In this document: in pieces, positions 10,360 to 61,257 of the stretch
Position numbering within the stretch: the first letter of the stretch is position 1
How the letters are laid out: each line of letters starts with the position of its first letter
NCBI GenBank assembly: GCA_016865855.1
Contig: VGNX01000001.1
Location: 1,060 to 65,059, forward strand
Source: Chloroflexota bacterium
GTDB taxonomy: Bacteria; Chloroflexota; Dehalococcoidia; GIF9; UBA5629
Length of the DNA stretch: 64,000 bases
Reading direction: 5' to 3'
Position numbers and translations under genes: made by a program
Notes under the pieces: generated by a model
Database searches by the model: none
What the model was told of the DNA's origin: nothing
The model's input: the letters and a program-made list of their open reading frames with translations, nothing else

Positions 10360-10455
10360 GTCCCACCCACCCCTATTTTACTACTTCCCCCACCGACGGC
10401 AAAGGTATTGTACTCGTTCAGTACATCAGTGATATTTCGCTTATTTGCATTTAGC

Positions 10456-10512
10456 ATGTAGCTGCGGGGCTTTAGCCCCACCCAGTGCGACCCTAAAGGG
10501 TCGCAGCTACAT
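10456..10512. repeat. REP-like compound palindrome (ATGTAGC...GGCTTTAGCC...GACCCTAAAGGGTC...GCTACAT)
   Basis: atgtagctgcggggctttagccccacccagtgcgaccctaaagggtcgcagctacat. Related copies are listed in the findings. Confidence 0.8.
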
Positions 10513-10580
10513 TTTGGGATAAATAAACGCATAATTGTGGAGCTGTTTACAGGAACTGCTCATGGCATAGAAGTAGGCCG

Positions 10581-16322: not shown

Positions 16323-16338
16323 GGCCTAGATTATTAAC

Positions 16339-16492
16339 AGGCTGTCCGAAAATGTAGTCTCGACCCTTTAGGGTCGGGGGCTCCCGAGGCTAAAGCCTCG
16401 GGGCTACATGTTTAATGTGTATCACCAATGAGCTATAATTTTTCCCACAAAGTGGGAGAGACAGATTGCCAGTTAGAGTTTTCGGACGGCCT
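16339..16492 (+). mobile_element. MITE-like element, copy A (subfamily A/C)
   Basis: Terminal inverted repeats (TIRs) are AGGCTGTCCGAAAA ... TTTTCGGACGGCCT. It carries a nested REP-like palindrome. The element is collinear with copies at 48403..48554, 57722..57873 and 58708..58859. Confidence 0.8.
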
Positions 16493-16517
16493 CTTAAACG
16501 CTCTTTAAAAGGTCAAC

Positions 16518-21340: not shown

Positions 21341-21532
21341 GTCATTGCGAGGGGCCTAAGCCCCAAAGCAATACCTGCGCTTTCCCGTCATTGCGAGGAG
21401 CGCAAGCGACGTGGCAATCTCGGTGGAGAGCACGGGGCATTGAGATTGCTTCGCTGCGCTCGCAATGACACGAAGACAAGCCACGACCCTTTAGGGTCAT
21501 GCTGGCCGAGGCTAAAGCCTCACCACTACATG
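21341..21532. repeat. hairpin-repeat units plus a degenerate REP-like palindrome
   Basis: Three units: gtcattgcgaggggcctaagccccaaagcaat; gtcattgcgaggagcgcaagcgacgtggcaatctcgg paired with gagattgcttcgctgcgctcgcaatgac; then ccacgaccctttagggtc...gaggctaaagcctc...ctacatg. Confidence 0.75.
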
Positions 21533-21739
21533 TCTCGTTCCCCCTCTCCCTTGACGCGAGGAAGGGTGGGCAGGCATCCAGCGAGGATTTACTCCCGCTG
21601 GGATATGGGGAACGGGAAAGGGTCAGGGTGAGGGTGAAATATCCCTCCTGTCTGCATCATTTTGTGCCTTAAAGTATTGACAAATATTATAAAGTGCTGT
21701 AAAATATCTAACAGTGGTCACATTTGCCTGATGCACTGG

Positions 21740-26965: not shown

Positions 26966-27333
26966 GCGTGGCAATCCCTATCATGATTTCCCTTAGATTG
27001 CCACGTCGCTAACGCTCCTCGCAATGACATAACAAAAGAAGCCCCTAACAATGACCAAAAGCTCCCTCTCCTGTCATTGCAAGCCCTTTGCCCTTTGTCA
27101 TTCTGAGGGAGCGGAGCGGCCGAAGAATCTCATCCCTTGCCTTGAGATCCTTCGCTTCGCTCAGGAGGGACAAGGTCTGTCCGCCTCGAACAGGTCGTGC
27201 CGTAATTTTCTGACTCCAAAGGGCTAAAACCCCACAACTACGTGTTTGTAATCTGACACAGGTTGTGCTCCAACTAATGTAGCCACGACCCTTTAGGGTC
27301 GTGCCCACGAGGCTAAAGCCTCGTGGCTACATG
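26966..27333. repeat. composite repeat block (both hairpin-repeat families plus a full REP-like palindrome 27277..27333)
   Basis: Contains agattgccacgtcgctaacgctcctcgcaatgac, tgtcattctgagggagcggagcggccgaagaatctc and atgtagccacgaccctttagggtcgtgcccacgaggctaaagcctcgtggctacatg. Track ORF 27045..27308 is spurious. Confidence 0.8.
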
Positions 27334-48321: not shown

Positions 48322-48402
48322 CCCCTACATTGTATCATAGGGTGCTTGAGTGCCGCCTTGAGCAACGATTGTGTATCATCTATTCAGGCTTTTCTTTTGA
48401 AC

Positions 48403-48554
48403 AGGCTGTCCGAAAATGTAGTCCCGACCCTTTAGGGTCGGGTTCCCGAGGCTAAAGCCTCGGGTCTACATGTTTAATGTGTATCACCAATGTAGCTATA
48501 ACTTCTCCCACAAAGTGGAGAGAAAAATTGTCACATAGAGTTTTCGGACAGTCT
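48403..48554 (+). mobile_element. MITE-like element, copy B (subfamily B/D)
   Basis: TIRs are AGGCTGTCCGAAAA ... TTTTCGGACAGTCT. The flanking hexamers are TTGAAC and CTGAAC (5/6 match). Confidence 0.8.
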
Positions 48555-48596
48555 CTGAACAACTGTTATCATTAGCAGGGCGGTTTTTTCTGGAGC

Positions 48597-48651
48597 TGTA
48601 GCCACGAGGCTTTAGCCTCGCTAGAGCGACCCTTCAGGGTCACAACTACAT
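48597..48651. repeat. REP-like compound palindrome
   Basis: tgtagccacgaggctttagcctcgctagagcgacccttcagggtcacaactacat. Confidence 0.75.
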
Positions 48652-48691
48652 TGAAAATGGATTGTTCATAAACACTCTCCAAAAACTCCTC

Positions 48692-50805: not shown

Positions 50806-51092
50806 TTCCTGCCATTCTGAGCCCTTCGCTTTTTGTCATTCTGAGCGAAGCGAAGAATCTCGAAAACATGTAGGGACAGGTCTTCAGACCTGTCCGATAT
50901 GGGTTAGGGACAGACCTGAAGGTTTGTCCCTACATTGGTTTGGCTGGGAATAAATCAAAACATGTAGCCACGGGGCTTTAGCCCCGTGAACCCGACCCTA
51001 AAGGGTCGGGGCTACATTGGTGTGGTAAATTACCGACCTTAAAGGGTCAGGGCTGAGCTGTCTTTGTCATTCTGAGCGAGGCGAAGAATCTC
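50806..51092. repeat. composite repeat block
   Basis: Contains units of the GTCATTCTGAG...GAAGAATCTC type at 50806..50862 and 51065..51092. A variant palindrome lies at 50868..50935 (atgtagggacaggtcttcagacctgtcc...gggacagacctgaaggtttgtccctacat). A REP-like palindrome lies at 50962..51017, with a partial copy at 51033..51054. Confidence 0.8.
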
Positions 51093-57611: not shown

Positions 57612-57721
57612 GGCTTACCTCTACCTTTTTACGCCTTAAAAACAATAGTAATTCGCTTCGGCTATAATGTCAAGATGTCTCCCTTGAAGTCAATAGACAT
57701 AACCTAAGGCTATCGCTATAC

Positions 57722-57873
57722 AGGCTATCCGAAAATGTAGTCCCGACCCTTTAGGGTCGGGCTCCCGAGGCTAAAGCCTCGGGGCTACATGTTTAATGTG
57801 CATCACCAATGAGCTATAATTTTTCCCACAAAGTGGGAAAGACAGATTGCCAGTTAGAGTTTTCGGACAGCCT
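57722..57873 (+). mobile_element. MITE-like element, copy C (subfamily A/C)
   Basis: TIRs are AGGCTATCCGAAAA ... TTTTCGGACAGCCT. A perfect 6-bp direct repeat CTATAC lies on both flanks (57716..57721 and 57874..57879). Confidence 0.85.
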
Positions 57874-57916
57874 CTATACTAACTAGGAAATTAGATTGTC
57901 TGAGGAAACGGTAAAT

Positions 57917-58699
57917 ATGCTAAATGGCCAAGATATAAAAACCTACATCAAAAGCCATTTGAACACCAAATTTGTTGGGCGACAGCTATATTACTATCAC
58001 CGACTTGCCACGACCATGGAGACGGCCAAGGAACTGGCAAAGAAAAAAACTGCTGAGGGAACTGTGATAATAGCTGATACGCAGACAGCAGGTAGAGGAC
58101 GCCTGAGTAGAGCCTGGCTATCACCTGAAGGCAGTCTAGCTATGTCGGTTATCCTCAAGCCTTCTCTGGATAACCTGCCACAGCTTGTCATGATAGCTTC
58201 TCTGGCTGTGGTCAGAGCTATTAGAAAAGTCGCTGGCCTCGAGACACAGATCAAATGGCCCAACGACGTCCTAATTAAAGGCAAAAAGGTCTGCGGCATC
58301 CTGATAGAAAGCGAAGTAAAAGGAGACAGAGTAAATTTTGCCATCATAGGCATAGGAATAAATGTTAATTTCGACCCCCTGGCTTTCCCCGACATTTCAG
58401 ACATAGCTACCAGCCTGTCACATGAGCTAGGAGCAAGGATATCAAAGGCTGCGTTTATCAGTACCCTGTTACCTGAACTGGAACAACTATATTTAGAGGC
58501 TCAAGCTGGAGCACCTGTATACAAAGAATGGCAAGAGAATATGGAGACGCTGGGCAGGCGGATACAGGTCAAAACTGGGGAAGCAGTCGAGCAGGGCAAA
58601 GCCGAAACCGTGACCGAACACGGCAATCTCATCTTGCGCCGGTCCGACGGCAGCCTAACTGAAATCGTGGCCGGCGATGTCACGGTAATAAAAGATTGA
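57917..58699 (+). CDS. birA: biotin--[acetyl-CoA-carboxylase] ligase
   Basis: TQTAGRGRLSRAWLSPEGS, KWPNDVLIKGKKVCGILIE. ATG 57917 has GAGGA 8 nt upstream; the track start is TTG 57896. Confidence 0.88.
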   Translation: MLNGQDIKTYIKSHLNTKFVGRQLYYYHRLATTMETAKELAKKKTAEGTVIIADTQTAGRGRLSRAWLSPEGSLAMSVILKPSLDNLPQLVMIASLAVVRAIRKVAGLETQIKWPNDVLIKGKKVCGILIESEVKGDRVNFAIIGIGINVNFDPLAFPDISDIATSLSHELGARISKAAFISTLLPELEQLYLEAQAGAPVYKEWQENMETLGRRIQVKTGEAVEQGKAETVTEHGNLILRRSDGSLTEIVAGDVTVIKD

Positions 58700-58707
58700 T
58701 TCCCCTT

Positions 58708-58859
58708 AGGCTGTCCGAAAATGTAGCCCCGACCCTTTAGGGTCGGGTTCCCGAGGCTAAAGCCTCGGGTCTACATATTTAATGTGTATCACCAATATAG
58801 CTATAACTTCTCCCACAAAGTGGAGAGAAAAATTATCACATAGAGTTTTCGGACAGCCT
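58708..58859 (+). mobile_element. MITE-like element, copy D (subfamily B/D)
   Basis: TIRs are AGGCTGTCCGAAAA ... TTTTCGGACAGCCT. No matching flanking hexamers. Confidence 0.8.
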
Positions 58860-58875
58860 CAGGAGTACAGGTCAA

Positions 58876-61049: not shown

Positions 61050-61257
61050 GAGATTCTTAGCGGAGCCTGCCCTGAGCTATGTGAGATTCTTCGCGGAGTT
61101 TACCCTGAGTGAGATTCTTCGGTCGCTTCGCTCCCTCAGAATGACAGAAAACGAAGGGCTCAGAATGACAACGGCGAAGGACTCATAATGACAAGAATGT
61201 AGCTGCGACTCTTTAGGGTCGCCTTTCTGCAGCGAGGCTAAAGCCTCGCCACCACAT
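61050..61257. repeat. composite repeat block (5 units of the GAGATTCTTCG / CAGAATGAC family, then REP-like palindrome 61197..61257)
   Basis: gagattcttagcgg..., gagattcttcgcgg..., gagattcttcggtcgcttcgctccctcagaatgacag, ggctcagaatgacaa, ctcataatgacaag; atgtagctgcgactctttagggtcgcctttctgcagcgaggctaaagcctcgccaccacat. Confidence 0.8.

Follow-up and report, generated by a model that had tools for sequence, protein, structure and literature searches.

REPINs and GTAG-tagged REP doublets with RAYT transposases are known in E. coli and Pseudomonas. IS5, the sister family of IS1182, typically generates 4 bp target duplications at YTAR-like or TTAA-like sites (ISfinder), and clean 4 bp duplications characterise the IS5 group more than the IS1182 members studied so far (ISfinder family table). 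IS1272/TnSha1 of the staphylococci, which belongs to the IS1182 family, enters the stems of hairpins, where some of the target is lost and none of it duplicated (PMC4923244, PMC5678879); such behaviour belongs to only some members of the family. Type II MITEs such as Correia, MITEAba12 and RUP are shorter than 500 bp, non-coding, bounded by inverted repeats and flanked by direct repeats; they lie only in intergenic DNA, form strong stem-loops, share with their parent IS no homology beyond the inverted repeats and may carry a sigma-70-like box (PMC10969869). The 2024 review of prokaryotic MITEs from which this description is taken mentions neither IS1182 nor Chloroflexota (PMC10969869).

The element described here resembles the type II MITEs in all of these respects and differs from them in its parent family and in its interior, a REP doublet that is also dispersed independently; Correia elements duplicate TA, whereas 4 bp at TTAA-like sites are duplicated here. 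The window, by which is meant the whole stretch of 64 000 nucleotides that was analysed, is part of contig C1 of a MAG (G000; 2.0 Mb, 84 contigs, 91% complete); the related genomes of the same family are MAGs titled 'Chloroflexi bacterium'. A sequence-only reading of the window had described a non-autonomous MITE with inverted repeats, target duplications, no nearby transposase and a nested REP-like palindrome, and the genome-wide copies, the empty sites and a candidate partner IS agree with this core. The element satisfies the size limit for MITEs (<500 bp; PMC10969869) and is almost certainly a MITE with a 4 bp target duplication; among bacterial repeats its kind is ordinary, and it is not a new type of element. 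The full reading, a type II MITE mobilised by an IS1182-family element and carrying REP sequence as passive cargo, is likely to be correct.

The window contains four intergenic copies, each on the + strand, at the places first given for them (16339-16492, 48403-48554, 57722-57873 and 58708-58859). With the borders as redrawn below they are as follows.

16338..16493, + strand: MITE copy A, A/C subfamily, 156 bp including a 2 bp internal insertion; TTAA at 16334-16337 and 16494-16497
48402..48555, + strand: MITE copy B, B/D subfamily; TGAA at 48398-48401 and 48556-48559
57721..57874, + strand: MITE copy C, A/C subfamily, 154 bp; TATA at 57717-57720 and 57875-57878
58707..58860, + strand: MITE copy D, B/D subfamily; flanked by CCCT-t ... 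c-AGGA, without a target duplication
57722..57735, + strand: left terminal inverted repeat of copy C, AGGCTATCCGAAAA (family consensus AGGCTGTCCGAAAA)
57860..57874, + strand: right terminal inverted repeat of copy C, TTTTCGGACAGCCT-C

Aligned with their flanks included, the four copies show a mean column identity of 87%. The 14 nt terminal inverted repeats, AGGCT(G/A)TCCGAAAA ... TTTTCGGAC(A/G)G(C/T)CT, are present in each of them as the sequence-only reading had stated. A length of 152-154 bp was given there; the element is 154 bp long when a terminal C at each end is included, with the layout 5'-C-AGGCTGTCCGAAAA...TTTTCGGACAGCCT-C-3'. Copy C ends 22-43 nt before the start of birA and copy D is placed between the convergent birA and SPFH genes. 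The birA gene (57896-58699) is thus bracketed by two copies of the same orientation and of different subfamilies; there is no sign of a composite transposon made up of copy C, birA and copy D, as copy C has its own TATA duplication, copy D has none and the outer flanks do not match.

Copies were counted in the whole MAG with blastn, which returned 53 of at least 100 bp, far above chance. The two subfamilies noticed in the window recur throughout the genome (A/C type, n = 38; B/D type, n = 15), with 95% identity within a subfamily and 89% between the two. Both ends are kept in 30-31 of the 53 copies, and the consensus inverted repeats of these complete copies are the 14 nt sequences AGGCTGTCCGAAAA and TTTTCGGACAGCCT. 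The element is non-coding (152-156 bp, longest stop-free stretch 33 codons) and without a family match in Rfam. All 53 copies are intergenic: 27 lie in spacers between tandem genes, 13 between convergent and five between divergent genes, and of the 27 copies in tandem spacers 19 point the same way as the genes and eight do not. Orientations are mixed within single contigs, against a replication-polar arrangement. Seven copies sit at contig ends of the MAG, so that the repeat evidently breaks the assembly. Four metagenome contigs from the same population (L109, L111, L112 and L114) join MAG contigs across copies of the element, namely the end of C19 to the start of C27, the end of C3 to the start of C19, the end of C28 to the end of C20 and the start of C21 to the start of C7; such joins are usable for scaffolding.

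The target duplication is 4 bp long and not 6 bp as had been proposed. The hexamer matches quoted in the window are literally present, but a perfect 6 bp repeat flanks only one of 30 complete copies, whereas a perfect 4 bp direct repeat was found at 23 of the 30 (87% per-base identity). When the pairing of the flanks was permuted, the mean number of perfect 4 bp matches was 2.4 and the maximum in 10 000 permutations was 8. The duplication is offset by one base from AGGCT/AGCCT, giving the flank pattern N-[XXXX]-C-AGGCT...AGCCT-C-[XXXX], in which the intervening base is C in 27/30 cases on one side and in 27/31 on the other; both of these C residues arrive with the element, as judged from the empty sites, and the element is therefore 154 bp long. 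The duplicated target is T-W-W-R, i.e. T-(T/A)-(A/T)-(A/G), with TTAA the commonest, and non-palindromic targets (CTCA, TGAA, TTTG, TAGG and CATA) also occur; in the window the pairs are TTAA/TTAA (A), TGAA/TGAA (B) and TATA/TATA (C), with none for D. Copies in this MAG show no preference for hairpin targets, the flanking stems having a mean of 1.7 against 1.9 when permuted.

Insertion polymorphism was observed directly by comparing filled with empty sites in related DNA. A metagenome scan with a 26-mer internal to the MITE yielded 44 contigs, which were compared with the MAG; some were 100% identical to it and others, from a second sample set, belonged to relatives 75-97% identical. Four filled/empty pairs were obtained, three from metagenome contigs and the fourth from the related genome GCA_041642995.1, and in three of the four the empty site holds a single copy of the tetranucleotide (one duplicate with a later substitution). 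Contig L097 is filled where the MAG (C4:~37915) is empty, ...atcTTAGatg... becoming atcTTAG-C[AGGCT..AGCCT]C-TTAGatg. The copy at C11:4359-4510 duplicates TAGG, and its empty counterpart in L078 is a REP hairpin, GACCCTT-TAGG-GTCGC. The copy at C12:22224-22373 corresponds to an empty cttac-CCAG-gtgg in L194 (GCA_041642995.1), with flanks 96-97% identical. The remaining pair, C2:30604-30743 against an empty L116 (flanks 97-99% identical), concerns a copy with a truncated right end that is flanked by a 25-27 bp direct duplication, TTGGCAAAAGGGCAAAAGCTAGATTGA, and is an aberrant insertion or repair event. A further site, C27:~5920, had to be set aside since L084, L088 and L103 are too rearranged for comparison. 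Copy A is also present in L089, from a relative 88-97% identical, and is therefore an older insertion. The MITE is real and has recently been mobile.

Nested in each of the four window copies is the REP-like compound palindrome that the sequence-only reading had noted. It occupies element positions 16-72 with the form TGTAG-N-CCCGACCC-TTTA-GGGTCGGG / CCCGAGGC-TAAA-GCCTCGGG-N-CTACA, and consists of two inverted GTAG-headed palindromes with stems that differ by compensatory changes. The copy in element C and the six stand-alone doublets of the window, which are 77-90% identical to the MITE-internal doublet, are listed here.

57736..57792, + strand: nested REP doublet of copy C, TGTAG-T-CCCGACCC-TTTA-GGGTCGGG / CT / CCCGAGGC-TAAA-GCCTCGGG-G-CTACA
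~10448-10521, - strand: stand-alone REP doublet (blastn census)
~21484-21533, + strand: stand-alone REP doublet (blastn census)
~27276-27333, + strand: stand-alone REP doublet (blastn census)
48597-48652, - strand: stand-alone REP doublet, diverged, 43 nt downstream of MITE copy B
~50958-51018, - strand: stand-alone REP doublet (blastn census)
~61196-61248, + strand: stand-alone REP doublet (blastn census)

The doublet of ~57 nt occurs alone at ~90 further loci in the MAG, and it recurs in most of the species that make up the genus as well as in several further genera of the same family. In this dispersal, and in its pair of inverted GTAG-headed palindromes, it resembles the REPINs, and RAYT-like Y1 genes likewise exist in sister genomes that bear the doublet. 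It differs from REPINs in that the stems of its two hairpins are not the same (GACCC versus GAGGC), so that a three-way junction would form instead of one long hairpin. The RAYT-like genes were found in G003, G008 and G011 and have flanking REPs at just one of five loci; those at L044:1405-1887 (G008) and in L043, L045 and L046 encode 160-residue Y1 transposases with an HLHLL motif. A search of the MAG (91% complete) for a Y1_Tnp gene (RAYT type, PF01797) gave no match, and the MAG appears to have lost its RAYT. Some sister species contain the doublet together with remnants of the left MITE end and 12-20 nt of the sequence that follows (MITE positions 4-85), and right-truncated MITE copies are present in the MAG, which makes it probable that the lineage of the MITE is older than the species.

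A likely partner element was identified through the inverted repeat, which the sequence-only reading had not assigned to any named IS family and which matches the left end of a 1.65 kb element of the IS1182 family. An exact match to the 14-mer lies 230 bp upstream of a transposase gene in G049, a genome of another family of the same order, and the IS extends over L159:1256-2909 (1,654 bp) as TTAA-GAGGCTGTCCGAAAACTAG ... GAGTTTTTGGACAACTTC-TTAA. Its first 17 nt, GAGGCTGTCCGAAAACT, equal the right MITE end in reverse complement at 17/17 positions; the match takes in two bases inside the right repeat of copy C (AG, 57858-57859). On NF033551, the IS1182 model of NCBIfam with a cut-off of 270, the G049 transposase reaches 331.7 bits and aligns to positions 42-487 of the 488 in the model, compared with 73.8 bits on the best IS5 model; model positions 1-41 lie in an upstream frame as the result of a single frameshift in this copy. 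Pfam domains are DUF772, DDE_Tnp_1 and DDE_Tnp_1_6, and the precomputed annotations of the homologues P0001-P0030 agree. A protein search returned intact homologues of 470-471 residues in ~30 protein clusters (81-88% identical), while identity to the other IS1182 members of the order is 32-42%. Ten further IS copies with conserved repeats were found, and the eight of them that could be read from end to end are all 1,609-1,654 bp long; the ends in nine both-ended copies read GAGGCTGTCCGAAAACTAG ... GAGTTTTTGGACAAYTTC. The candidate partner thus falls within the IS1182 family in its length (family range ~1.3-2 kb with inverted repeats), in its inverted repeats of ~17 bp, in its equivalog match and in its DUF772 and DDE_Tnp_1_6 domains.

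An intact copy of the IS, with a 471-residue transposase, is present on contig JBGGHL010000018.1 of the near-conspecific genome GCA_041642995.1 (L194:9899-11550), where the adjacent 9.5 kb are 96-97% identical to contig C12 of the MAG. A second intact copy was found in metagenome Ga0315280, a sample that also contains MITE-bearing contigs, with a flank 86% identical to contig C33, and a remnant lies in G201, a member of the window's own family. In GCA_041642995.1 synteny with the MAG (C12:~17431) begins exactly at the right end of the IS, and nothing beside C12:17431 corresponds to the sequence on the left of the IS, which suggests an IS-associated rearrangement or a variable region.

Several other candidates for the partner were discarded. 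The IS4, IS5, IS1380, IS1182 and IS1634 elements of G200, whose transposases other than that of IS5 lie on small contigs, lack exact MITE ends, and a 4.6 kb repeat pair in G041:C10 is merely two decayed MITE ends around ordinary genes; no inverted-repeat pairs of IS scale were detected in the MAG, in G041/G042 or at the 44 metagenome loci. The sole DDE_Tnp_1 match in the MAG is an open reading frame on contig C78 that has no MITE-type ends. Contig C78 (2,729 bp, 56% GC versus 48.5% for the genome) holds a single open frame of 746 residues with a weak match that fills it, and probably represents an IS fragment of foreign origin, a mis-binned one or contamination.

The distribution of the ends was followed through 202 genomes of the order. 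Exact 14-mer counts were 52 in the window's genome, 13 each in G200 and G018, which represent two other genera of the window's family, and five each in G203 and G179; elsewhere in the order they were near chance. Among 13 other species of the window's genus the 14-mer was absent apart from a single hit, and the full 152-154 bp unit was absent from all 13. At least four other MITE families in G200 and G018 are bounded by the same ends and have other interiors (140 bp, 158 bp and others), so that at least five families across three genera have common inverted repeats and different interiors, as predicted if the transposase recognises the ends only and acts in trans. These sister families (L068-L071 and L073-L076; three to four copies each) either lie directly against ATGTAG REP heads or are enclosed by 'GTCATTCTTGAG' repeats in inverted orientation. 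Their sites, at which no 4 bp duplication was seen, are reminiscent of hairpin replacement of the IS1272 type, and two insertion modes, one with a 4 bp duplication and one free of duplication, may both exist.

The following course of events is proposed. The 154 bp type II MITE would have both its ends derived as copies of the left inverted repeat of the 1.65 kb IS1182-family IS. A DDE transposase of ~471 residues (DUF772, DDE_Tnp_1 and DDE_Tnp_1_6), supplied in trans by the IS, would bind the two (C/G)AGGCTGTCCGAAAA ends and integrate the element at T-W-W-R tetranucleotides, with TTAA preferred, through 4 bp staggered cuts, and gap repair would leave the 4 bp duplication. The element has been amplified to ~50 copies in the species, in two subfamilies and in intergenic DNA only. 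The GTAG-headed REP doublet, presumably drawn from an older REP repertoire of the lineage, would have travelled as passive cargo.

The IS1182 clade is probably the mobiliser of the MITE, and its transposase is the presumed mover. There is evidence to set against this assignment. Neither a transposase nor a remnant of the candidate partner IS was found in the MAG (91% complete); conversely, the 21 kb examined of GCA_041642995.1 hold the IS and no MITE. Similarity between the MITE interior and the subterminal DNA of the IS is not significant beyond the 15-17 nt inverted repeat; homology confined in this way makes the element a type II MITE in the terminology of PMC10969869. The left terminal base is C in the MITE and G in the IS. 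Flanks of the IS are always T-W-W-A-like, but in the eight copies with both flanks available (including that of G049) the tetranucleotides are identical in just two (TTAA/TTAA), agree at 3/4 positions in one and at 2/4 in the rest, a comparison that is weak either way because metagenome contigs of a multi-copy IS may be chimeric. The sister MITE families have the same repeats and lack the 4 bp duplication. IS1272, which is the IS1182 member studied best, inserts into hairpins without duplication (PMC4923244, PMC5678879), unlike the MITE here, which makes a clean 4 bp duplication at T-W-W-R; the insertion of some related MITEs into REP hairpins nevertheless echoes the hairpin targeting of IS1272 (PMC4923244, PMC5678879).

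A rival view is that the MITE is genuine but is moved by another transposase, for instance of the IS5 family, and that the IS1182 element merely has a similar inverted repeat. The clean 4 bp duplication is closer to the behaviour of the IS5 group than to that of IS1272 or of the other studied IS1182 members (PMC4923244, PMC5678879), and matching flanks are seen in only two of the eight IS1182-clade copies. A complete IS5-family element of ~1.27 kb is present in G200 (L124:1258-2531, G200:C28), with inverted repeats GAGACTGCTGAAA and the 4 bp duplication ATAT; the likeness lies in inverted repeats that start GAG...TG...GAAA, as they do in this element. The IS5-type repeat agrees with that of the MITE, however, at only ~12/15 positions and with a gap, compared with 17/17 for the left repeat of the IS1182 clade, and the 202 genomes searched in the order yielded no IS5 element with the exact repeat. 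Flanks of the same T-W-W-A kind are seen in the IS1182 clade, which occurs in a relative that is 96% identical, and its transposase is set apart from IS5 by the model scores given above and by a length of ~471 residues that includes a long coiled central stretch, as is typical of IS1182. An IS5-type mover is accordingly considered unlikely, and the IS1182 clade is retained as the probable mobiliser.

A second possibility accepts the mobility and adds co-option: a promoter-like box of the element would provide a portable promoter directed outwards or form a small-RNA gene, or its hairpins would stabilise the 3' end of the upstream gene or terminate its transcription. The features concerned were read in copy C.

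57794..57822, + strand: promoter-like TTTAAT-N17-TATAAT, pointing to the right end
57826-57840, + strand: hairpin TCCCAC-AAA-GTGGGA, after the promoter-like box

Several MITEs of prokaryotes are known to contain sigma-70-like promoters (PMC10969869). In the window a co-oriented gene follows three of the four copies, and tandem spacers show the 19 to eight excess of co-oriented copies; on the minus strand a terminator-like hairpin with a T-run was called inside the REP doublet. Single strands of copy C fold with z = -8.7 as RNA and -7.7 as DNA. Genome-wide, however, the downstream gene is co-oriented with the MITE in just 26 of 49 cases, the -10 box reads TATAAC in the B/D subfamily, a consensus promoter scan did not call the TTTAAT-N17-TATAAT box, and the Rfam search gave no match. 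Co-option thus seems improbable, and regulatory roles of the MITE are putative and unproven. The weakest alternative, that the unit is a structured intergenic repeat of the REP/BIME kind whose spread or persistence would be due to a RAYT-type (Y1/HUH) enzyme or to selection on a structured motif and not to a DDE mechanism, could appeal to the GTAG-headed doublet, to folding far better than that of shuffles, to the ~90 solitary doublets conserved across the genus and to the RAYT-like genes of sister genomes, but it is already contradicted by the duplications at 23/30 copies and the three pairs with a single tetranucleotide at the empty site, since RAYT-mobilised REPs have neither target duplications nor terminal inverted repeats identical to an IS end, no Y1_Tnp gene was found in the MAG and the absence of the full unit from the 13 other species argues against a conserved motif, so that it is regarded as extremely improbable.

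The preferred reading, an IS1182-mobilised type II MITE in which the REP doublet would be mere cargo, can be extended to a broader suggestion that is considered unlikely: MITEs of the IS1182-type transposase might serve as vehicles for REP-type hairpins, REP doublets being spread by a DDE enzyme in genomes without RAYT. Hairpin seeking is an established trait of IS1182 transposases. Three of the at least five same-ended MITE families carry differing hairpin-repeat cargo, namely the GTAG doublet (G000), other GTAG hairpins (G018) and 'GTCGTTGCGAG' hairpins (L067). If this were true, insertion beside or into REP hairpins would repeatedly make new units bounded by terminal inverted repeats, and one transposase would have two integration modes, one with a 4 bp duplication at TTAA-like sites and one replacing hairpins without duplication.

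For the family, an IS1182-clade element associated with clean 4 bp duplications widens the known range of behaviour. For the organism, the MITE explains part of the fragmentation of the assembly, and its insertion polymorphisms can serve as strain markers in lake metagenomes. Together, the MITE and the autonomous IS make up a concrete and testable pair for uncultured small-genome Chloroflexota of the Dehalococcoidia type, in which mobile elements have barely been described.
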